This document shows positions 12,029 to 58,919 of a stretch of DNA of 64,000 nt, piece by piece. How positions within the stretch are numbered: position 1 is the stretch's first letter; each line of letters starts with the position of its first letter. The position numbers and the translations under genes were made by a program. The notes beneath the pieces are model-generated. The model was given only the letters and a program-made list of their open reading frames with translations, did no database searches and was not told the origin of the DNA. The DNA comes from a virus: positions 30,632 through 94,631 of the IMG/VR virus record IMGVR_UViG_3300009093_000034; one strand, written 5' to 3'.

Positions 12029-12331
12029 GTGAACATGATCGGAAAACTGATTGGTGGTGTGGTCCTCGTGATCATCGCTGCTATTCTGTTCTGGCTGATT
12101 TGGGGTCTTCTGACCCCCTGGATCGTCAATTCCATCCCCGCTGGGGAGTGGAAAGCTTTCATGGGTGTGGTGGTCACCATCGTCGTGGGTTGGTTTGGAG
12201 GAATCGTTCTTCCTCTGGTCCCCCTGATTGCTGGTATCGTCTTCATCTTCAAGTTCTTCGGTCAGGCTTTTGCCTTGGCCACCGGTTCGAACATCGGTAA
12301 GTATCGTTACCGTGGTCGTCCCTACCAGTAA
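12029..12331 (+). CDS. GC-rich membrane protein (promoter-gene-terminator cassette)
   Basis: 100 aa with three hydrophobic helices. Codon usage is markedly GC-richer than the neighbours. The likely ATG is at 12035. Confidence 0.5.
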   Translation: MNMIGKLIGGVVLVIIAAILFWLIWGLLTPWIVNSIPAGEWKAFMGVVVTIVVGWFGGIVLPLVPLIAGIVFIFKFFGQAFALATGSNIGKYRYRGRPYQ

Positions 12332-12350
12332 GAACTTTCAGTTTTGTTAA

Positions 12351-12380
12351 AGATCCTCCCGAAAGGGAGGATTTTTTATT
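12351..12380 (+). terminator. rho-independent terminator
   Basis: ATCCTCCC-GAAA-GGGAGGAT hairpin followed by TTTTTTATT. Confidence 0.8.
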
Positions 12381-12398
12381 GTCTTCTAGATATACTAC

Positions 12399-12413
12399 TG
12401 AGATATTGTAGCC
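12399..12413 (+). promoter_or_regulatory. conserved promoter-like motif TGAGATATTGTAGCC (copy 2)
   Basis: The motif ends 6 nt before the ATG at 12417, implying a leaderless or near-leaderless transcript. Confidence 0.55.
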
Positions 12414-12416
12414 ATC

Positions 12417-12641
12417 ATGGATGAACTTACTTGGGAACAGGTGAAAGACGGTAAGCACGAAGAGTGGAACGCCGTCCAGAAAGATCACGTTCAGGCTTAC
12501 ATCAAGAGACTCTCTGCTTTTCGTCTCGATGTGAAGTTTCGGAACCCGACCATTGAGGACTTTGAGTTCCTCGGTTCTTTGGGAGAAGCTAAGTCTTTGA
12601 CCCGAGAAGAACTGGCTAAGGTCGAACCCATCTCAAAGTAG
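12417..12641 (+). CDS. hypothetical protein (GC-rich cassette)
   Basis: 74 aa, with codon usage resembling the other motif-driven genes. Confidence 0.45.
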   Translation: MDELTWEQVKDGKHEEWNAVQKDHVQAYIKRLSAFRLDVKFRNPTIEDFEFLGSLGEAKSLTREELAKVEPISK

Positions 12642-15472: not shown

Positions 15473-15901
15473 ATGAGATTCACTCAAGAATGGTTTAGAA
15501 ACTCACCACAAGAAGAAGTCAAGCTATTGAATGGTGAGGAAGTTTGGGTCTGCGATTACAGATTCACCTCATTAGGCAACAAGCCTATTCGAGTCATTGT
15601 TCCGACTCTTTGTATCATCCACGTCAGTTTTTACGTGGACAAGTACTATCCTAGAGGAAACCCGATTCCTGTTGTAGAACTCAAGATCAAGAAGAACGGA
15701 AAAGATCTTAAGGTAGAAGACAACACAACGGCCTACAACAACTGGCTGAAGATCTTTAACGATGAACAAGAGTGCAGAGCTTTCTTCAGAGAACAAATGA
15801 CCGAAAACCTTGATGACCTAGACGAGTGGGAAAAAGGTCAGATAGAAAGAGCTGCAGAACTCAGAGCTACAATGCACAAGCTCCTAAAGGAACACGGATG
15901 A
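15473..15901 (+). CDS. hypothetical protein
   Basis: 142 aa. A 140-nt noncoding region containing inverted repeats lies upstream. Confidence 0.45.
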   Translation: MRFTQEWFRNSPQEEVKLLNGEEVWVCDYRFTSLGNKPIRVIVPTLCIIHVSFYVDKYYPRGNPIPVVELKIKKNGKDLKVEDNTTAYNNWLKIFNDEQECRAFFREQMTENLDDLDEWEKGQIERAAELRATMHKLLKEHG

Positions 15902-16698
15902 GCAACAAATTTAAGAACGATTCACTTGGAACAAGGATGAAGGAGAACTATGAGAACAGATCAAAGATCTTTCTCCCTCGTAGAACCTACATCATCCTTC
16001 GTGTGGATGGCAAAGCTTTTCACACATACACGCGTGGTCTATTAAGGCCTTTCGACCAGGGTTTGGTCGAAGACATGGACGCTACGGCAATCTACCTTTG
16101 CAAGAACATCATGGGTGCTCAGTTCGCCTATGTACAGTCTGACGAGATCTCTATTCTTCTCACAGACTTTGACACCAACGAGACCCAATCTTGGTTTGAC
16201 AACAATGTCCAGAAGCTTGCCTCAGTCTCTGCTTCTATGGCAACCTCAGCTTTCAACAAGGCCAGGATTTCAAGGTTCATGGCTACTACGACAGCAGTTC
16301 CTCTCGAGGATGCTGTGGACAAATTGACTTGGGCAGAGTTTGACTCTCGTGCCTTCCAGATCCCTCAGAAAGTTGAAGTAGAGAACTACTTCATCTGGCG
16401 TCAGCAGGATGCTACAAGAAACGCCATCTCCAGTGCTGCTCAATCTGTCTACTCCCACAAAGAACTTGAGGGAAAGTCTGGAGATGAGAAGCAAGAGATG
16501 ATGTTTCAGAGAGGCATCAACTTCAACGACTATGATCCTAAGTACAAAAGAGGTCGTTTGATCGTTACAGAAACTTTTCCAAGTATCTCAGTTACATCAG
16601 GTGACATGGCAATTAGAACAAAATGGGTCTCCACGGCCGCTCCTATCTTCACTCAAGATAGAGATGATCTCTCTGATAGAATTCCAGAAAGTAGGTAA
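15898..16698 (+). CDS. Thg1-like protein (tRNA-His guanylyltransferase family, 3'-5' nucleotidyltransferase)
   Basis: YIILRVDGKAFHTYT and YVQSDEISILL match the Thg1 hallmark blocks RIDGRxFHRF and QSDEYSF. The ATG at 15898 overlaps the upstream stop. Confidence 0.7.
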   Translation: MSNKFKNDSLGTRMKENYENRSKIFLPRRTYIILRVDGKAFHTYTRGLLRPFDQGLVEDMDATAIYLCKNIMGAQFAYVQSDEISILLTDFDTNETQSWFDNNVQKLASVSASMATSAFNKARISRFMATTTAVPLEDAVDKLTWAEFDSRAFQIPQKVEVENYFIWRQQDATRNAISSAAQSVYSHKELEGKSGDEKQEMMFQRGINFNDYDPKYKRGRLIVTETFPSISVTSGDMAIRTKWVSTAAPIFTQDRDDLSDRIPESR

Positions 16699-17035: not shown

Positions 17036-17269
17036 ATGAGCTGTTTAGTTTGTGGCCAAAATGCGTTTGATAGGATTGACATCACTATCCCTGGAGTTCC
17101 CAGAGTATATTTGAAATCCTCTAGAGGAGAAGTTGATCTTTCATTTTGCACGATCTGCGGAACTGTCAAAGCTGACGTGCCCTTCCCATCTACAACTAGA
17201 GCTGCTTTGTTAGAAGATAGATATAAAAAGATCTTAGAAAGAAACAGTGGTTTGTCCACAGATCCTTGA
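17036..17269 (+). CDS. zinc-ribbon protein
   Basis: CLVCGQ...CTICG Cys pairs. Confidence 0.4.
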   Translation: MSCLVCGQNAFDRIDITIPGVPRVYLKSSRGEVDLSFCTICGTVKADVPFPSTTRAALLEDRYKKILERNSGLSTDP

Positions 17270-17300: not shown

Positions 17301-17531
17301 ATGCCCGCTATTTCGGATATGGTCGAGAAGTACAAGGAACGAGTGATCGTTCTGGAACGGAAGATCTCGAACGCTGGTTACGGTGGATCCTCTGACTACA
17401 CGTCGGAGACTGAACGTGAGACCTTGATTGAGGTCATCAATGATCTCGAGGCCATGTCTGGTCTCGAAAGAACCATCTTCCCTGAACCCTTCAAGGAAGG
17501 TTGGCACGGAATGATTGGAGGTCCGAACTAA
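17301..17531 (+). CDS. hypothetical protein (GC-rich cassette)
   Basis: 76 aa with a strong RBS. Confidence 0.45.
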   Translation: MPAISDMVEKYKERVIVLERKISNAGYGGSSDYTSETERETLIEVINDLEAMSGLERTIFPEPFKEGWHGMIGGPN

Positions 17532-24044: not shown

Positions 24045-24463
24045 CACGATACGTTTTAGGTTTTCTTTTTGATGACGAAAAGAACACGGTCGTCTTGATC
24101 AAGAAAAACAAGCCTGTTTGGCAAAAAGGTCTCTTGAACGGTGTTGGTGGGAAGATCGAAGAAGGTGAACTTCCTATAGTCGCTATGGTAAGAGAGTTTG
24201 AAGAGGAAACGTCTGTGAAAACAGACAACCTTGATTGGAAGCACTTTGCTGGTGTTGAAGGCGAAGGTTACTCCATCGCTTGTTTCTACACCATCAGTTC
24301 TGACTACATGAAAAACGTCAAGACCATGGAAGAAGAAGTGATCGAGATTCGTAGGATTCGAGATCTTCAAGATCTTCCTATAGTCTCCAATCTTCTTTGG
24401 TTGGTTCACCTTGCAAAAGATGAAAACAATGGTAACCATCCTACTGTTCAAGTAAAGTACTAA
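24041..24463 (+). CDS. Nudix hydrolase
   Basis: GGKIEEGELPIVAMVREFEEETSV fits the Nudix box Gx5Ex7REUxEExGU almost perfectly. Confidence 0.65.
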   Translation: MTRYVLGFLFDDEKNTVVLIKKNKPVWQKGLLNGVGGKIEEGELPIVAMVREFEEETSVKTDNLDWKHFAGVEGEGYSIACFYTISSDYMKNVKTMEEEVIEIRRIRDLQDLPIVSNLLWLVHLAKDENNGNHPTVQVKY

Positions 24464-24491
24464 ATGACTGTTATTCTTCTGTGTGTACTAA

Positions 24492-24959
24492 TTGTACATG
24501 AGAAGAACCTATAGAATAGAAAAGTCTTTAGATATTGAGGAGTTCATTAGAATAACTAATGAATCGTTAACCATGAAACAAGCTGCTGTGAAACTTGGTC
24601 TTCATTTTAATAGTTTCAGAAGAATAGCAGTAAAGTATGGAGTTTATCGACCTAATCGTGGAGGCAAAGGAACCCATAAGCATAAAGAAAATGGGACTAC
24701 ACCTCTTACTGAAATTTTGGAAGGAAACCATCCATCATATCAAACGTTTAGATTAAAACTTAGATTAATTTCAGAAGGAATTTTTATTCCAGAATGTTCT
24801 GAATGCAAAAATACTCAATGGAATAAAAAAGAAATTCCTTTAGAGTTAGATCACATAGATGGAAATTCTTCTAACCATCTTTTAGACAACTTACGATTGT
24901 TATGTCCAAATTGTCATGCACAAACTGAGACGTATAGAGGAAAAAACAAAAAGTTTTGA
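24492..24959 (+). CDS. HNH homing endonuclease with N-terminal HTH
   Basis: CSECKN...LDHIDGNSSNHLLDNLRLLCPNCH is an HNH motif. Its AT-rich codon usage is distinct from the flanks. Confidence 0.7.
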   Translation: MYMRRTYRIEKSLDIEEFIRITNESLTMKQAAVKLGLHFNSFRRIAVKYGVYRPNRGGKGTHKHKENGTTPLTEILEGNHPSYQTFRLKLRLISEGIFIPECSECKNTQWNKKEIPLELDHIDGNSSNHLLDNLRLLCPNCHAQTETYRGKNKKF

Positions 24960-24969
24960 GATATTACTC
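24954..24969 (+). promoter_or_regulatory. promoter-like motif variant TTTTGAGATATTACTC (copy 4) upstream of tRNA
   Basis: Variant of the TGAGATATTGTAG family, ending about 10 nt before the tRNA 5' end. Confidence 0.45.
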
Positions 24970-24979
24970 AAGCAAGTGA

Positions 24980-25090
24980 GCGGGAGTGGAGAAATGGTGA
25001 GACTCAGCGGACTTATGAATGCATTCTAACTAGTGCATTGAATAAATCCGCTGCTTAAGAGGCGTGCCGGTTCGAGTCCGGTCTCCCGCA
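24980..25090 (+). tRNA. tRNA-like gene (111 nt) with long variable arm and apparent 28-nt insertion in the anticodon loop; candidate anticodon UAU
   Basis: 7-bp acceptor GCGGGAG/CTCCCGC with discriminator A. U8, A14, GG and A21 are present in the D-arm. The T-arm is GCCGG-TTCGAGT-CCGGT. The anticodon stem GCGGA/UCCGC encloses 35 nt instead of 7. The variable arm is GCTT-AAG-AGGC. Confidence 0.55.
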
Positions 25091-25138
25091 GAAGTTGGAC
25101 CGTAGAGTTCAACGATTTCCCAAAGAGGAGGATAACCA

Positions 25139-25591
25139 ATGAGTTATCTCACTGCTACTACTCAGGACATTCAGGACGTCGCTAAGACCCTGATTTATGC
25201 CACTGACAAGACCACGTCCCGCGACATTCTGGAGAAGATGCGCGCCGACAATTACTGGATCAACCAGACCGAGGTCGCTGCTGCGCTTCGTGATCTTCTG
25301 GCCACGGATCCTTCCTACGTTCGGACCTTTCAGCCCGATGCCTCGGTTCCTACCGGTGGCTACTTCATCTACGGCCTTGCGAGCGTGATCAAGACCACGG
25401 CCTCTGCCCCTGTCTACCCTGCGAAGGTGAAGAAGGTTCAGACTGTTGGTGACTACGAAGCTCGTGACAAGAACGATCCCAACTGGACCCTCGTTCGTTA
25501 CGACAACGTCACCGAGAACCAGGCCAAGCATCTCTTCTCCGAAGAGTACGGCGTCGCCTACACTGACGTTCGCGTCAAGAAGGCTGTCTAA
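25139..25591 (+). CDS. hypothetical protein (GC-rich island)
   Basis: 150 aa with a strong RBS AGAGGAGG. Its GC-rich codon usage differs from the phage backbone. Confidence 0.5.
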   Translation: MSYLTATTQDIQDVAKTLIYATDKTTSRDILEKMRADNYWINQTEVAAALRDLLATDPSYVRTFQPDASVPTGGYFIYGLASVIKTTASAPVYPAKVKKVQTVGDYEARDKNDPNWTLVRYDNVTENQAKHLFSEEYGVAYTDVRVKKAV

Positions 25592-25619
25592 GAAAAAAGT
25601 TTCTCTTGAAAAGAGAGGC

Positions 25620-25634
25620 TGAGATATTGTATAC
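25620..25634 (+). promoter_or_regulatory. conserved promoter-like motif TGAGATATTGTATAC (copy 5)
   Basis: No ORF follows it. A terminator lies 150 nt downstream. Confidence 0.5.
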
Positions 25635-25800
25635 GTAATGACCTAGAGCTTGAGCATAGGTTAAGCCAAACGGTAAAGTAAAGGCCGCCAAATAGCAAAA
25701 GGGAGGGTTTCTATCTTCTAAAGATCTAAACCACTATATTTTGTTTTTTTAATAGATTGTTTTTCGAAAAGGGAACCTGTTGGTTCCCTTTTCCTTTTTG
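25635..25800 (+). ncRNA. candidate small non-coding RNA (promoter-to-terminator unit without ORF)
   Basis: Bounded by motif copy 5 and the strong terminator at 25767-25800. The only ORF inside is ATG-ACC-TAG. Confidence 0.35.
25767..25800 (+). terminator. rho-independent terminator
   Basis: GGGAACC-TGTT-GGTTCCC hairpin followed by TTTTCCTTTTT. Confidence 0.8.
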
Positions 25801-25809
25801 TGAAGAGAA

Positions 25810-25824
25810 TGAGATATTGTAGAC
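25810..25824 (+). promoter_or_regulatory. conserved promoter-like motif TGAGATATTGTAGAC (copy 6) upstream of PARP-like gene
   Basis: 26 nt upstream of the ATG at 25850. Confidence 0.55.
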
Positions 25825-25849
25825 AACTTATAGTTCATGGAGACTACAG

Positions 25850-27061
25850 ATGGCCCGTATTGAAAAGCTGATCATGGTGACCGGTGAAGAGAATCACAAC
25901 AAGGTCTATGAGCTGATCGACAACGAGAACGGTACTTGTACCGCCAAGTGGGGTCGGGTTGGCGCTGCTCTTCAGGAGTGCAACTACCCCATCAGCGAGT
26001 TTGAAAAGAAGCTCAAGGAAAAGGTCAAGAAGGGCTATCGCGTGATCACCGATCTTCTGTCTGTCGAGAAAAGTGATGGTAAGACCACCACTACGGACGA
26101 CGAAGAGGTAAAGATCCAGAACATGTCCCGTGAGGCCATGGAGTTGATCAACTTCCTCCAGAGTTGTGCTAAGGGCATCGTCAAGCAGAACTACACCGTC
26201 AAAGTTGCCGACGTTACTCAGAAGCAGATCGACGCTGCTCAGGCCATCCTGGACGGACTGGTTGCTCTGTCCAACCAGAACTGGTCTCGTGAAGAGGCCA
26301 ACAAGATCCTTTTGGATCTTTACAACACCATCCCCCGGAAGATGAGCAACACCAAGAACTTCCTCATCCAGATCGACAACATCACGAAGAAGCGCCTTCA
26401 GGAGTTGATCTCCAGTGAAGCCGATCTTCTTGACGTTATGCGCGGTCAGGTTCAGACCACGAACGTTGCTCCCAAGTCTTCCACTGGCGAAGTCAAGTTG
26501 GATATTGAGATTCGTCTCGCTACTCCCGATGAGATCGATGAGATCTCCAAGAAGACTGACTTTGATGTTCGTAGTGCTGCAAGGATCTATCGGGTGGAGA
26601 ACACCAAGACCAAGAATCGCTACGAAAGTATCAACAAGCAGAATGAACAGCTTCTCTACCACGGTTCTCGCAGCCAGAACTGGTGGTCGATCATCAACGG
26701 CGGTTTGAAGATTCGTCCGACCAACGCCGTTCACACTGGCTCGATGTTCTCCGATGGTATCTACGCTGCTGACAAAGCTCAGAAGTCTCTCGGTTACACC
26801 GACGGTGGTTATTGGACTGGTAGCAGTGGTTCCTCGAAGAGGTTCCTCGGCATCTACAGTTTCAACCTCGGTCGTCAGTGGGATCTGTTCGCTGGTGGTC
26901 AGCGTCATGCCAGCTGGATGATGCAGCTCAACCTGAAGAAGATCAACGACAAGGGTTTTGACTCTCTGTTCGCTAAGGGTGGAGCAGATCTTCGCAACAA
27001 TGAGATGATCGTGTTCGAAGAGGCTCGCTGCACCATCAAGTATCTGATCGAGATGCGTTAA
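25850..27061 (+). CDS. PARP-like ADP-ribosyltransferase (WGR domain + helical domain + ART catalytic domain)
   Basis: The N-terminal WGRVG is a WGR motif. The C-terminal LYHGSRSQNWWSIINGG, GIYAADKAQKS and NEMIVFEEARCTIKYLIE blocks supply the H-Y-E triad of PARP catalytic domains. Confidence 0.75.
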   Translation: MARIEKLIMVTGEENHNKVYELIDNENGTCTAKWGRVGAALQECNYPISEFEKKLKEKVKKGYRVITDLLSVEKSDGKTTTTDDEEVKIQNMSREAMELINFLQSCAKGIVKQNYTVKVADVTQKQIDAAQAILDGLVALSNQNWSREEANKILLDLYNTIPRKMSNTKNFLIQIDNITKKRLQELISSEADLLDVMRGQVQTTNVAPKSSTGEVKLDIEIRLATPDEIDEISKKTDFDVRSAARIYRVENTKTKNRYESINKQNEQLLYHGSRSQNWWSIINGGLKIRPTNAVHTGSMFSDGIYAADKAQKSLGYTDGGYWTGSSGSSKRFLGIYSFNLGRQWDLFAGGQRHASWMMQLNLKKINDKGFDSLFAKGGADLRNNEMIVFEEARCTIKYLIEMR

Positions 27062-27063
27062 CC

Positions 27064-27300
27064 ATGTCAAAGTTTGAGATCTCCATCGAAGCTGGTCTCC
27101 TTATGAAAGGTCAGGTTAGACGTCTCCTTGAAAAAACCAAGAGAGATCTTCTTTGGAACAATCCTCAAGCTTACGTTGAGATCTACGAAGAATCATACTT
27201 TCTTGAATCTGAATTTACCTTCAGGGTCAAGAACATCAACGAAGTCGAACGTCTTGCTCTTCTGAAGTATTTTCAGAAGATCGACCAGGAGACCTTATGA
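27064..27300 (+). CDS. hypothetical protein
   Basis: 78 aa immediately downstream of the PARP-like gene. Confidence 0.4.
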   Translation: MSKFEISIEAGLLMKGQVRRLLEKTKRDLLWNNPQAYVEIYEESYFLESEFTFRVKNINEVERLALLKYFQKIDQETL

Positions 27301-27408
27301 GAACTTCTTGGCAAAGAGGCTACGATGCCTATTGGGACTATCCTGAGATGGTTCCTGATTTGAGCTCTCCTAGAGAGTTCAGAATGGGCTGGTGGGCAGC
27401 CTACGACG

Positions 27409-29995: not shown

Positions 29996-30925
29996 ATGAG
30001 TGACGCAGTAGAAAAGAAAGAACCCACGTATGATGAGATCGTCAAAAGCGCTAAAGAGTACTTTGAAGAACTCAAAGCCAAGATCAAGGTCTCTAACGAT
30101 GAGCTTCTTGACCAGATCTCCACAAACTCAGCTCAGCTCTTTGCTCAGCTAGAGAGAACTGGACAGATTCAGGCCATGAAGAAACTTGTGGCTCACATTG
30201 CCTTGATTGAAAAGGAACACGAGATCATCAAGTCTGGGATCAACACCTTTGTGACCACAGATGAGATCAAAGAGTTCATTGACAAGGTTGATGGACGTGT
30301 GGTGAATCTCATTGAGCTGCATAAGTATGAGCGTGAGGTTCCTGAGAACGTGATCCAGAAGTACGAGAAGGTCAAACATCTTTTCACCACCTTCTTCGTT
30401 CTTTTCACTGACTACACAAAAGAACACGCCAAAAAGATCGCCAAGGAAAGAGATCCTATTCTCTTTGGTATGCTTCAAGACGCTGGAACCAAGGCCACGA
30501 CTCAGCGTATGTATGTGATCGGTGACTGGGAAGATGAGTATTGTGATCTTACTTTGGACCGACTTGTGTCCGAAGCCGCTGGTCTCTTTGACAGACCGAT
30601 CGCTATTCAGTTCAGAGATCCTTTGTCCCTTGACGAGATGAGAGCTAAGCTCAAGATGTTGGATGGAGAGTCCAAATCTGATAACTCTAGATGGGCAATG
30701 AACAATGTCGTGGTTACCGGAACCACTGCTTCCATGCAAAACATCTACGTTCCTGTAGTTCCATCAGAACAGGATTTTAAAGATAAGAGCATTCCTGATG
30801 AAGTTCAAGAAGTCGCAAAAGACGTTGTTGAAGAGGAAGAAACTCGAAGTCTTCTCACTAAAGATTCTGAGATTGACACCATGATTCTCCAAGAGACCAA
30901 GAAGCCTTGGTGGAAGTTCTGGTAA
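29996..30925 (+). CDS. hypothetical protein
   Basis: 309 aa. Confidence 0.5.
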   Translation: MSDAVEKKEPTYDEIVKSAKEYFEELKAKIKVSNDELLDQISTNSAQLFAQLERTGQIQAMKKLVAHIALIEKEHEIIKSGINTFVTTDEIKEFIDKVDGRVVNLIELHKYEREVPENVIQKYEKVKHLFTTFFVLFTDYTKEHAKKIAKERDPILFGMLQDAGTKATTQRMYVIGDWEDEYCDLTLDRLVSEAAGLFDRPIAIQFRDPLSLDEMRAKLKMLDGESKSDNSRWAMNNVVVTGTTASMQNIYVPVVPSEQDFKDKSIPDEVQEVAKDVVEEEETRSLLTKDSEIDTMILQETKKPWWKFW

Positions 30926-44135: not shown

Positions 44136-44471
44136 ATGATCCGTACTGAGCGCGAGCTCTGCTCATACATCCACAATGAGATGAACTTTAATCTCAATGC
44201 CCAGTTCGGTGACTTCAAGAGAGTCGTCCTTCAGAAGGATCACTCTATTGATGACAACGAGATCAAGATCACGTACTCATCCAATGACTCCAAGACCAAG
44301 AGAACCATCGATACTCTGATCGCCAAGAAGAAACCTTACGGAGAGTACATTCTCCAGATCAAGGATCTTCCGTCGGCGATTTACTTCCTCAGCTGCATCA
44401 ACGAGTTTGATACTCTTGATGAAAAGCATCGGGTGAGCATGATCGACCAGCTCTTTAGGAGCGTTCAATGA
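44136..44471 (+). CDS. hypothetical protein (tandem paralog A)
   Basis: 111 aa. It shares the MI(R/Q)xExxLCxxI N-terminus and the FLxxxN...LF(R/E)SV C-terminus with the next ORF. Confidence 0.45.
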   Translation: MIRTERELCSYIHNEMNFNLNAQFGDFKRVVLQKDHSIDDNEIKITYSSNDSKTKRTIDTLIAKKKPYGEYILQIKDLPSAIYFLSCINEFDTLDEKHRVSMIDQLFRSVQ

Positions 44472-45893: not shown

Positions 45894-46141
45894 AGAACAA
45901 TGATGAACTCTTGAGACTTTTGATGTCTGCCAACCAAGGCTTAGGCGGACAAATCTTTGAAAAAGCTATCGTCAACATTCAGGTAGGACTTTGTCCTACT
46001 TGTGGAGAAGCTTACAAAGGTTTTAGAGATCGAGCATCTATTGAAGAGTACAGAATCAGTAGAATGTGTCAGGATTGTCAAGACTCCGTTTTCAAAGAGC
46101 CTGACGATGACGAAATGTTTTACGATCCTCCGGAAAATTAA
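45890..46141 (+). CDS. zinc-ribbon protein
   Basis: CPTCGE...CQDCQ. Confidence 0.4.
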   Translation: MKNNDELLRLLMSANQGLGGQIFEKAIVNIQVGLCPTCGEAYKGFRDRASIEEYRISRMCQDCQDSVFKEPDDDEMFYDPPEN

Positions 46142-46142
46142 G

Positions 46143-46574
46143 ATGGTTACAAGAAAAATTTGGCGTTTTGAAAACGAAAAAGGTGAAGGTCCTTATAACG
46201 GACACCCTAGTCCAAAATTTCTCTTTAAGTCTACTCATGACGGAGAGTCTAAGAAACATCCTCATCCCAAGTATGACTTTAAGAACTCTAAGATCATTAG
46301 ATTCTTAAACAACATGAACACTAAAGATCACTTTAGATGTGGATTTTCTACAAAGAAACAGGCATTTGAGTGGTTTACTGAACGAGAAAGAAAGATCTTG
46401 AAAAATAATGGCTACAATTTAGTCCGTAAAAATGCAGATAGAATCTTTAAAGGAAACAAACAAGTTATCTATATTCGTGAAGGTCATTTAGAAGAACTTG
46501 TTAAAGTTTTTCGTTTTGATCATTCTGTTCCAAAAACATTAACATCAATATATTCAATCAGGAGCTCAACATGA
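46143..46574 (+). CDS. hypothetical basic protein
   Basis: ATG at 46143 just after the upstream stop, in frame with the longer tracked ORF. Confidence 0.4.
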   Translation: MVTRKIWRFENEKGEGPYNGHPSPKFLFKSTHDGESKKHPHPKYDFKNSKIIRFLNNMNTKDHFRCGFSTKKQAFEWFTERERKILKNNGYNLVRKNADRIFKGNKQVIYIREGHLEELVKVFRFDHSVPKTLTSIYSIRSST

Positions 46575-47122
46575 TGCTACAGACCATTGAAGGAAACCTA
46601 ATCACTCTCGCCCTTGAAGGCAAGTTCGACATGATCGCTCATGGTTGTAACTGCTTCCATACCATGGGAGGAGGGATCGCCAAGTCTATTTCTGAGACTT
46701 TTCCTGAAGCTCTTCAAGCCGACAGGGTCTTTGGAGAAAGAGGAAACGTTTGGAAGCTTGGTCAGGCTTCCAAGGCTACGATCTTTCGTGGAGACACTCA
46801 GTTTGTTGTGGTGAACCTCTATACTCAGTTTGAGCCTGGAGCCAACTTTGAATACTTGGCCTTGATCAACTCTTTAGAGCATCTCAAGAAATACTTGGAT
46901 ATTCATCTCTACGATCGAGTGTCCGATAAACCTTACCGTCTTGGTTTTCCCAAGATCGGAGCTGGTATTGGTGGTGGAGATTGGGACCAGATCTACCAGA
47001 TCATTGACCAGTCTCTTGACGAGAAGTATCGTGAGGAACAGGGAGTCGAAATCACGGTTGTCGAGTTCATTCCTCCTAATCCTCTTCAGGAGATCGTTGT
47101 TCGTTCTCTTCAGAAGAAGTAA
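46571..47122 (+). CDS. macrodomain protein (Poa1-like ADP-ribose processing)
   Basis: MIAHGCNCFHTMGGGIAKSI matches the Poa1/macro signature iaHqcNc.g.MGaGIA. Confidence 0.6.
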   Translation: MMLQTIEGNLITLALEGKFDMIAHGCNCFHTMGGGIAKSISETFPEALQADRVFGERGNVWKLGQASKATIFRGDTQFVVVNLYTQFEPGANFEYLALINSLEHLKKYLDIHLYDRVSDKPYRLGFPKIGAGIGGGDWDQIYQIIDQSLDEKYREEQGVEITVVEFIPPNPLQEIVVRSLQKK

Positions 47123-56287: not shown

Positions 56288-56488
56288 ATGATTCAGACCC
56301 TAGCTGGCATCTGGCTGTTTGGTTGGATGCTTGCAGTTGCTACGGTTCTTCTAGACTACCCTAAGAAGGGAGCTCTGAAAGGCTGGCAGGAAACAGTCTC
56401 CATCCTTCTCTACTGTCTGGTTTTGATCCTTCTTTGGCCTCGTCGTGTTTACTGGCTTGGCAAGCAGATCTTGAAAGGTAACCCCTAA
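56288..56488 (+). CDS. small GC-rich membrane protein
   Basis: 66 aa with two TM helices. Confidence 0.4.
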   Translation: MIQTLAGIWLFGWMLAVATVLLDYPKKGALKGWQETVSILLYCLVLILLWPRRVYWLGKQILKGNP

Positions 56489-56489
56489 A

Positions 56490-57587
56490 ATGCAGAACCT
56501 TCTCGTCCTCAAGTTCATTCAGGAACATCCCAACGATTGGGAGCAGATCCTCTCTGCTGAGCCTTACCACATGTCAGTCAAGCACTACGATGGTAAGGAA
56601 CTCATCAACCAGAACTTGGTGATGCTCTCCTACAACCAGATCTTCTCCGACTTCCACAACCCGATCGTTCGTGAGTGCCGAGGTATCATCATCGACAAGG
56701 TCACCATGAAGGCTGTCTGTGTTCCGTTCTTCAAGTTCGGAAACCAGGGAGAGAGCTATGCTGACAAGATCGATTGGTCCACAGCTCATGTTCTCCAGAA
56801 GATCGATGGTTCTCTGATCAAGCTCTATTTCTACAATGGAACCTGGCGAATCGCCACCAATGGAACCATCAACGCTCTCGAGTGTGATCTTCCTTCGGAC
56901 CTTGGTCCTTCGAAGACCTTCGGTGAGTTGTTCTTGAACAACATCCCTGTGGACAGCTTCCTCGACATCGCCGACAAAGACTACACTTACATGTTTGAGA
57001 TCTGCTCTCCTTGGAACCGGGTGGTAACTCCCTGGCAGACCACCGAGATCTTCTTCTTGGGCATGCGTCACAACGAGACCCTTCAGGAAACTCTTCCTGA
57101 TGACCGGTTCATGCCGATCCTTCCTCCGAAGATGTATCCTCTGACCTCTTTGGCTGAGGTCGAAGCTGCTTCCAAAGAGCTTCCCTTCCAGGATGAAGGT
57201 TATGTCGTCGTTGACGCTGACTTCAAGCGTGTCAAGATCAAGGGTCCGGCTTACGTCAAGATCCACCATCTCCGTTCTGAAGGGCCCTTCACCATGAAGC
57301 GTGCCTTCGAGTTGGTTCAGGCCAATGAAGTTGGTGAGTTTCTTTCGTACTATCCCGAGTATACTAACGTTGTAGAAGGTGTTCGTTCCAAATTGGACGT
57401 CATCAAGGAAGCTCTGAAGGAACAGGAAACTCTTGTTTTCTCCCAGAACTTCCTTAGCCGAAAGGACTACGCTCTCTTTGTCAAGGACTTCCAGTACAAG
57501 TCTTACTTCTTCTCGAAGTTGGATGGCAAGGTGTCTGGCATCGACGAGTACGTTTCTAAACTCAAGTTCGATCAGGTTCAACTGTGA
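56490..57587 (+). CDS. RNA ligase 1 (T4 RnlA-like)
   Basis: VLQKIDGSLIKLYF is nucleotidyltransferase motif I KxDG(S/T). Its 365-aa length is comparable to T4 Rnl1. Confidence 0.7.
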   Translation: MQNLLVLKFIQEHPNDWEQILSAEPYHMSVKHYDGKELINQNLVMLSYNQIFSDFHNPIVRECRGIIIDKVTMKAVCVPFFKFGNQGESYADKIDWSTAHVLQKIDGSLIKLYFYNGTWRIATNGTINALECDLPSDLGPSKTFGELFLNNIPVDSFLDIADKDYTYMFEICSPWNRVVTPWQTTEIFFLGMRHNETLQETLPDDRFMPILPPKMYPLTSLAEVEAASKELPFQDEGYVVVDADFKRVKIKGPAYVKIHHLRSEGPFTMKRAFELVQANEVGEFLSYYPEYTNVVEGVRSKLDVIKEALKEQETLVFSQNFLSRKDYALFVKDFQYKSYFFSKLDGKVSGIDEYVSKLKFDQVQL

Positions 57588-58553: not shown

Positions 58554-58919
58554 ATAAAGGGAACTCTGTTTCAGCGTAACAACCGAAGTTAGCGCCGACA
58601 AAATGAGATGATGCGAAAGGCCTTGGGGAGCACAAGGTACCAACGAGTAGCTACCATCTCACGTACTGTCTCTCATGCCCCTGAGAGAACTTCCGTTTTA
58701 AGAAGCGACCACGAATTGCTTCCCAGGTTGCGGAAGAACAAATAGTTCCCGAGCAAAGTAGTGTAACGGTTTCGCACGACCAGTGTCTACTGGTTAGTTC
58801 TAGGATCATCCCCTAGACTTTGCTATTGCTCTTGAATTCCACGTAAAGGAGGTTAACCATTCACATGAATTCCAAGGACAACTTTCACACTTCACACATC
58901 ATAAGGTCTTCTCACGAAA

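Follow-up and report, generated by a model that had tools for sequence, protein, structure and literature searches.

A composition step in a jumbo phage genome as a likely junction of unrelated elements, among them a winged-helix–PARP gene pair and an interrupted tRNA

Interval 24492-27300 of a phage DNA window of 64,000 nucleotides (IMG/VR record IMGVR_UViG_3300009093_000034, positions 30,632 to 94,631) was analysed, and is read here with moderate confidence as a junction of unrelated elements and not as one island. The elements that meet in it are an HNH homing-endonuclease gene, three units that are each led by a copy of a promoter-like motif, protein genes with the codon bias of resident genes, a module made up of a winged-helix (wH) gene and a PARP-like gene, and an interrupted tRNA gene. 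Most of these are of known kinds; the wH partner and the interrupted tRNA-Leu are the parts worth attention. Coordinates without a locus name are those of the window; the features of the interval, the Macro-domain, Thg1-like and RNA ligase genes and the ARAGORN element at 58752-58825 lie on the + strand.

An earlier note on this DNA had described the interval as a GC-rich mosaic island holding an HNH gene, a tRNA, a 150-aa gene, a small RNA (sRNA) candidate and a PARP-like gene. All five elements were recovered: by PHROG and Pfam matches, by Rfam, as an open reading frame (ORF) with a Shine-Dalgarno site, and as a promoter-to-terminator unit. The interval is a mosaic in that it contains a presumably mobile HNH gene, with a GC content at third codon positions (GC3) of 0.20 and nucleotide matches across phages, but it is not a single GC-rich island.

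Codon bias of the interval genes and the motif that precedes them

In the 64-kb window 98 genes were called (GC3 mean 0.45, sd 0.10), and GC content was scanned in 450-nt windows (mean 0.435, sd 0.040). The lowest of these windows in the entire 64 kb (0.316) holds the HNH gene and the second-highest (0.551) holds the 150-aa wH gene; the sharpest composition step of the window falls in the interval between the two. The earlier note had placed here a switch to GC-richer coding sequence extending from 25139 to 27300. The step from 0.316 to 0.551 is real, but the GC-rich part stops at 27061, not 27300, and is not continuous, consisting of two genes (25139-25591, GC 0.552, and 25850-27061, GC 0.509) that are split by an AT-rich spacer (25592-25849, GC 0.357).

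Among the 98 genes, the 150-aa gene ranks first in GC3 (0.69), the PARP-like gene second (0.68) and the HNH gene 98th (0.20). GC at second codon positions (GC2) is ordinary in the 150-aa and PARP-like genes (0.41 and 0.35), and their excess is limited to third positions. The main source of the bias is avoidance of A-ending codons, as in CAA to CAG, AGA to CGT, CCA to CCC and ACA to ACC. A3, the share of A at third positions, is 1% for the 150-aa gene and 5% for the PARP-like gene, compared with 10% in genes of the motif class outside the interval and 24% in bulk genes.

The motif is a phage-specific 12-mer, TGAGATATTGTA, that resembles an extended -10 element (TGnGATATT). Exact copies of TGAGATATT occur seven times in the window (0.86 expected), a count reached in none of 100 shuffles. 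All seven lie on the + strand, at gene ends or between genes, just upstream of + strand genes. Three of them, at 24957, 25620 and 25810, fall in the interval, as the earlier note had said; the chance that three of seven random sites lie within 853 nt is 0.017. P1 (24957-24968, TGAGATATTACT) stands 12 nt upstream of the tRNA, P2 (25620-25631, TGAGATATTGTA) is part of a 21-nt direct repeat shared with P3, and P3 (25810-25821, TGAGATATTGTA) stands 28 nt upstream of the PARP start codon. In the other phage loci that were fetched, the motif was absent except for one chance match. From these positions and the likeness to an extended -10 element we infer that the motif is a strong promoter. Twice the TGA stop codon of the upstream gene makes up the first three nucleotides of a motif copy, at 24957-24959 (HNH gene) and at 17267-17269 (gene 17036-17269), a tight packing of gene ends and promoters.

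Genes that come first after a motif copy average 0.63 in GC3, compared with 0.44 for the rest (Mann-Whitney p=2e-5), and the contrast persists when both interval genes are left out (p=3.6e-4). When a codon model was trained on motif genes from outside the interval only, the two interval genes ranked 2nd and 4th of 98. Motif sites coincide with four of the six highest GC peaks at the 1.2-kb scale, and comparably GC-rich patches are found in other parts of the window (near 2200, 7650, 12050, 17300 and 56300). In other phage loci (locus GC 0.33-0.55), GC3 is above the local average for PARP in eight of nine and for wH in five of six, and the GC3 of both follows each genome's own GC. Since the excess is confined to third positions, is common to motif-following genes and is high in other phages too, the two genes are assigned to a resident expression class and not to a recent import. 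All window genes of this promoter class share the bias, and only the HNH gene looks compositionally foreign. We infer that the GC-richness stems from a codon bias of resident genes that is linked to expression, and that translational selection on strongly or early expressed genes is its most likely source. The codon class that follows the motif also takes in 12035-12641, 17301-17531, 44136-44471 and 56288-57587, and includes an Rnl1-type RNA ligase gene. Expression level, timing or avoidance of particular host tRNAs are possible causes of the near-exclusion of A-ending codons.

The earlier note had taken the layout as a sign of a recently acquired or mobile accessory cassette; spelled out further, this would mean that 25139-27061 came from a GC-richer donor into a hotspot formed by a tRNA and a homing endonuclease. 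The sharpest composition step of the window does lie here, the HNH gene and the tRNA adjoin the block, PARP and wH genes are patchy and stand in differing neighbourhoods across phages, and no gene that flanks the block is common to other PARP loci. Recent acquisition is nonetheless improbable in our judgement. The GC excess is a third-position effect, resident genes that follow the motif have an equal bias, and every unit bears the phage's own 12-nt motif, which elsewhere was met only in the one chance match. PARP and wH genes are relatively GC3-rich in other phages as well, tracking genome GC, the best non-self PARP homologue is merely 56% identical at the protein level, and no flanking direct repeats, integrase or recombinase were found in 24400-27400. 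A reading of the two genes as members of the resident expression class is preferred. The proposal of an accessory cassette thus survives as that of a patchily distributed accessory module, of whose recent acquisition GC-richness is no sign. The codon and GC comparison that the earlier note had called for places the 150-aa and PARP-like genes with the resident motif genes and leaves a foreign composition to the HNH gene only.

The winged-helix and PARP-like genes

The wH gene (25139-25591, 150 aa) has a strong Shine-Dalgarno site (AAAGAGGAGG) and is probably co-transcribed with the tRNA from P1. Its product consists of two domains: the N-terminal one is a winged helix, the C-terminal one a small alpha/beta domain. 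The latter has the order beta-beta-alpha-beta, is conserved, and carries GDW and TRNQA[RK]Y motifs. No significant membership of a Pfam or PHROG family was found for the protein. In a word-indexed search only the query itself was returned, as for an ORFan; this was overturned by an exhaustive HMMER search of 1.84 billion proteins, in which the family is rare and has 29 representatives.

The PARP-like ADP-ribosyltransferase (ART) gene (25850-27061, 403 aa) encodes an ART catalytic domain, preceded by probable WGR and helical regulatory domains. The ART domain matched Pfam PF00644 with 79 bits (cut-off 26.7) and PARP1 in the PDB with E = 5.5e-14. The H-Y-E triad is kept, llyHGSR being aligned with LLWHGSR of human PARP1, GIYaAD with GIYFAD and NEmIVf with NEYIVY; H271, Y305 and E385 are invariant in 22 homologues. 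For the helical domain, the aligned PARP1 residues are 118-392 of the construct. The WGR match is weak, its 17.9 bits falling short of the cut-off (22). The protein does contain the WGRVG motif, and PF05406 is precomputed in many homologues. More than 2,400 homologues were found, the best non-self one being that with 56% identity, and the phage homologues are annotated as PARP.

Members of the wH family were found next to PARP genes in other large phages. Among the fetched loci, a member lies directly beside PARP in L007 (292-kb contig) and in L014/15 (L014 being a 111-kb contig), and in L023 (131-kb) and L025 (17-kb) the stop and start codons of the wH and PARP genes abut or overlap. In L012 the member lies 3.7 kb downstream of PARP. 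In Cellulophaga phage phi4:1, gp030 is a wH member (hhalign probability 94%) and stands next to the annotated PARP gp031. Another candidate, gp112 of Klebsiella phage FBKp34, was rejected as a member of the family. In an independent set of 80 PARP loci from IMG/VR a member was present within 6 kb in 13; it is immediately upstream of PARP in some of these loci, the order seen here, and downstream in others. Because members of so rare a family recur beside PARP genes, the two genes are regarded as a conserved pair. The linkage across unrelated large phages is strong, though not obligatory, and PARP and wH together form an accessory module with a patchy distribution and differing neighbourhoods. 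The wH partner goes unmentioned in the papers on phage and bacterial PARPs that were consulted (PMC7824862, PMC8120803, PMC11662467).

The earlier note's remark on the tRNA neighbourhood was borne out more widely, since PARP modules often lie among tRNA genes. The pair often sits within tRNA gene clusters, as noted for L023, L025 and 21 of the 80 IMG/VR PARP loci, and the fetched stretches contain 10 tRNAs in 10.5 kb (L023) and 9 in 6.8 kb (L025). A gene for a LEM-3-type GIY-YIG nuclease stands directly upstream of PARP in three contigs of unrelated phages, L006 (8840-9586), L014 (5301-6047) and L023 (3255-3785). In the vicinity of PARP and wH genes there are also recurrent genes for ATP-dependent DNA ligase, PTH2, NAD synthase and RNA ligase.

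A Macro-domain protein of 183 aa is encoded at 46571-47122 (Pfam Macro 26.6 bits, cut-off 22), in the same genome as the PARP-like gene, and is a possible eraser or reader of ADP-ribose. In Klebsiella phage FBKp34 a homologue with 31% identity (L009, 1064-1507) lies 3 kb upstream of the PARP gene. Directly downstream of the PARP-like gene in the window is a 78-aa ORF (27064-27300; GC 0.405, GC3 0.47), for which no Pfam or PHROG match was found. Its composition is ordinary, which puts it outside the GC-rich class, and it is probably in the same transcript as the PARP-like gene.

A class II tRNA gene with an insert in the anticodon loop

The tRNA gene (24980-25090) was identified with Rfam RF00005 and with ARAGORN in intron mode as a class II tRNA with a Leu-like body, A73 and an insert in the anticodon loop. 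The Rfam score was 42 bits in a 1-kb scan (gathering score 29); default ARAGORN and whole-window Rfam scans did not call it. In the body, the variable arm is long, the D stem has 3 bp and the discriminator is A73; CCA is not encoded. The insert, at about 25016-25045 with ambiguous borders, measures 28 nt in ARAGORN intron mode and 31 nt as gapped by Rfam. It stacks on the anticodon stem as a hairpin of 4 bp plus 8 bp (fold z = -4.1). Known bacterial tRNA introns are self-splicing group I introns of at least 200 nt. The insert is far below group I intron size, and it is not a bulge-helix-bulge.

The body without its insert was compared with 109 phage tRNAs from the fetched loci. Its nearest seven were all tRNA-Leu, and the nearest four of these all tRNA-Leu(taa); the anticodon assumed for this comparison slightly favours 'taa', not 'Leu'. 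A mature anticodon UAA (Leu) is the most parsimonious and probably the right one, other excision points giving UAU or UUA. The label tRNA-Ile(tat) given by ARAGORN was ruled out by the class II, Leu-like body. An ochre suppressor with anticodon UUA was judged unlikely, as ORFs stay intact when read with the standard code, and genes end most often in TAA (58 of the 98 called genes; TGA 37, TAG 3); these genes gave no sign of stop-codon reassignment.

Relatives were sought by pattern scans of three collections, and none, with or without the insert, was found. A 22-mer pattern of the T arm and acceptor had no match in viral or genome contigs, and a pattern of the anticodon arm with a gap of 2-32 nt had one chance match in metagenome contigs, inside coding sequence. 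Insert-bearing tRNAs above the Rfam threshold were present in two other large phages that carry PARP, L030 (9944-10064, 44.9 bits) and L037 (1501-1628 and 1899-2026, 46.5 and 47.9 bits). Their inserts of 40-54 nt are in or near the anticodon loop and are unlike the window insert in sequence, structure and position. ARAGORN reported one more element in the window, a 'tRNA-???' at 58752-58825 whose anticodon has two bases (tc) and which lies a little downstream of the RNA ligase region. Rfam gave it no support even in a 500-nt scan, and it is probably either a false call or a degenerate tRNA-like element.

The element might instead be a dead, non-decoding relic of a tRNA-Leu that serves only as a 5' processing or stability element of the wH mRNA. 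Default tRNA finders reject it, splicing of short tRNA inserts is not known in bacteria, the insert forms no canonical bulge-helix-bulge, and the scans of three collections gave no relatives. Against decay stand the four arms, the variable arm and A73, which are intact, and the Rfam score above the gathering score. The element has its own promoter-like motif 12 nt upstream, and the insert neatly prolongs the anticodon stem in coaxial fashion (z = -4.1), unlike random damage. Other large phages with PARP have insert-bearing tRNAs that score 45-48 bits, and the genome encodes an Rnl1-type RNA ligase and a Thg1-like enzyme for tRNA repair. tRNA introns are also reported in Lak megaphages (PMC6784885). 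The relic is the less probable of the two, although a serious possibility, and the gene is treated below as an interrupted tRNA-Leu.

The HNH gene

A free-standing HNH homing-endonuclease gene occupies 24498-24959 (153 aa from ATG; 155 aa from a TTG at 24492) and fills the gap between a Nudix gene and P1. The product matched PHROG 10822 (HNH, 1.7e-31) and, narrowly, Pfam HNH (22.0 bits, cut-off 21.4), and has the HNH (beta-beta-alpha-metal) motif (ELDHIDGNSSNH...CPNCH). The GC content of the gene is 0.318, and its GC3 lies at z = -2.5, the lowest of 98. The 3' part has 67-81% nucleotide identity to HNH genes of unrelated phages that infect Escherichia, Klebsiella, Agrobacterium, Salicola and Rhodococcus. 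The lowest GC3, the location in the lowest-GC window and these nucleotide matches mark the gene as a foreign piece, and it is taken to be a selfish mobile element inserted between the Nudix gene and the next promoter. An AT-rich ORF of 155 aa at 46107-46574 was considered as a paralogue; it has no similarity to the HNH gene and no Pfam match.

TTA accounts for 9 of the 16 Leu codons of the HNH gene (5.9 per 100 codons; 0.85 overall), the highest density among the 98 genes, and the tRNA begins 21 nt downstream of the HNH stop codon. From these two facts it could be supposed that the HNH gene and the tRNA are one mobile unit, in which a tRNA-Leu(UAA) decodes the many UUA codons of the HNH message. 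This is very improbable. The tRNA lies behind the phage's own motif, which overlaps the HNH stop codon, and in other phages the HNH relatives have no linked tRNA under the match. High use of TTA is simply expected of an AT-rich gene, and the anticodon call hinges on where excision occurs. The endonuclease gene and the tRNA gene are accordingly kept apart as two elements of the junction.

The unit between the paired genes

A candidate non-coding transcription unit of about 165-170 nt extends from P2 to an intrinsic terminator (25634-25803). The terminator, at 25766-25793, has a perfect 12-bp stem followed by a T-run. It is the sole canonical one, of two that the earlier note had listed. The other, a 10-bp hairpin after the 150-aa gene (25598-25620), has an A-run before it and was not called by the terminator scan; since no T-run follows on the + strand, it is not a canonical + strand terminator.

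The unit contains no ORF of at least 40 aa and none with a Shine-Dalgarno site, and its fold has z = -2.8. Only chance-level matches were obtained in Rfam, none below E = 0.1, and neither a paralogue nor a long antisense target was found within the 64-kb window. In phages with the same gene order the wH and PARP genes are only 12-54 nt apart, and for this reason the unit looks inserted into the pair. That it is an independent transcription unit is plausible from its arrangement between motif and terminator.

Proposed activities and points against the reading

In the proposed scheme, P1 would drive the tRNA-Leu-like gene and the wH gene, P2 a non-coding RNA of about 165 nt that ends at the strong terminator, and P3 the PARP-like gene and the genes after it. 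The WGR-helical-ART enzyme would sense nucleic-acid ends and ADP-ribosylate with NAD+, and the wH protein would be its nucleic-acid-binding (DNA-bound) partner, its target or its regulator. The Macro-domain protein (46571-47122) could reverse or read the ADP-ribose mark. For the tRNA to decode, the 28-nt insert would have to be removed; otherwise the RNA would act as a non-decoding tRNA-like molecule. A speculative route of removal is a duplex-specific cut at the base of the hairpin, followed by ligation of the Rnl1 type.

A more far-reaching version can also be put forward. In it, wH and PARP would be a two-component, NAD+-dependent system of large phages, not described before, that marks nucleic-acid ends or a DNA-bound partner protein, within an accessory tool-kit for RNA and DNA repair and NAD+ metabolism. 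The tRNA-Leu would be matured by proteins, a double-strand-specific nuclease cleaving at the hairpin base and the phage's Rnl1-type ligase joining the ends again, as a tRNA splicing pathway of a bacterial virus. This combination is offered as a long shot.

Several points weigh against the reading of the interval as a junction of a resident class, a conserved pair and an interrupted tRNA. No wH member was detected in L006, L009 (FBKp34) and L010/11, nor in 67 of the 80 IMG/VR loci, and L024 has a wH member without PARP within 5 kb. The motif is a putative promoter by its position and likeness to an extended -10 element only, with no conserved -35. To our knowledge, no bacterial pathway or mechanism removes short (28-nt) inserts from tRNAs. 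The avoidance of A at third positions could have another cause. The whole block may also have arrived fairly recently and then ameliorated, no close relative having been found. The wH member of L024 stands among genes for NAD synthase, NMNAT-Nudix, isochorismatase and Rnl1.

Genome and relatives

The window is part of a metagenomic contig of 305,853 bp (ENA ERZ27252312, k141_4393686). Phage structural genes (head-like, tape-measure-like and tail-collar) are present on this contig, along with genes for a family A DNA polymerase and a chaperonin. With these genes and those for RNA repair, the source is a jumbo phage with a genome of about 306 kb. A Thg1-like 3'-5' nucleotidyltransferase is encoded at 15898-16698 (Pfam, 96 bits) and an RNA ligase of the T4 Rnl1 family at 56490-57587 (43 bits). 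Between them the two enzymes supply the phage that carries the interrupted tRNA with a tool-kit for tRNA repair.

When the window was compared at the DNA level with cultured phages, matches were confined to the 3' part of the HNH gene, and no relative was found. IMG/VR was scanned with the PARP-like protein, the 150-aa protein and the Nudix, HD-like and M23 peptidase proteins, with zero syntenic loci. No close relative of this phage was found in the collections searched. The HNH gene is present in all three contigs that bear this locus.

Implications

Where GC content changes sharply along a phage genome, the cause can be an internal expression class, defined here by a promoter motif and avoidance of A-ending codons, and not foreign DNA. 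This is a caution for the calling of islands by composition. What is new is that the 150-aa gene belongs to a rare winged-helix family paired with phage PARPs, which gives biochemistry a concrete handle. The interrupted tRNA-Leu, together with the cases in L030 and L037, adds to the unexplained tRNA introns of megaphages. With an Rnl1-type ligase and a Thg1-like enzyme encoded in the same genome, it becomes possible to test whether a bacterial virus can splice tRNAs by means of proteins.

Comparison with known systems

Bacterial PARPs are described from Herpetosiphon aurantiacus and Clostridioides difficile CD160 (PMC8120803, PMC5966428), and PARP1-3 and DNA-activated bacterial PARPs sense nucleic-acid ends (PMC8120803). 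Among annotated phage PARPs are those of Cellulophaga phages phi4:1 and phi17:2, Xanthomonas phage XacN1 and Klebsiella phage FBKp34 (PMC7824862; PMC11662467). The PARP-like protein of the window shares with bacterial and phage PARPs the H-Y-E triad and probably the WGR-helical-ART architecture, and with phage PARPs the setting in a large phage near genes for NAD+ metabolism, ligases and RNA repair. It is only 25-36% identical to the phage PARP records that were matched (isolates and two uncultured genomes). A dedicated winged-helix protein accompanies it here, as it does the PARPs of many metagenomic phages. A putatively independent small RNA unit, moreover, separates the two genes of this phage, each of which stands behind a motif copy of its own. 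Compared with winged helices of the PadR, Pex and ArgR types, the wH protein has an added C-terminal domain, and its partner is a PARP and not an operator-regulated operon.

The HNH gene resembles the free-standing HNH genes of T4-like and jumbo phages (PHROG 10822, 14736) in its motif, size, AT-richness and intergenic position. Its homing is presumed, and the gene is found in each of the three contigs with the locus.

'Enigmatic' tRNA introns have been described in Lak megaphages (Devoto et al., 2019, PMC6784885). The tRNA of the window is like the Lak tRNAs in having a short insert in the anticodon loop that is not a group I intron and is missed by tRNA finders run in bacterial mode. It differs from them in belonging to another phage lineage, in its tRNA-Leu body, and in an insert that is a simple coaxial hairpin of 28 nt.

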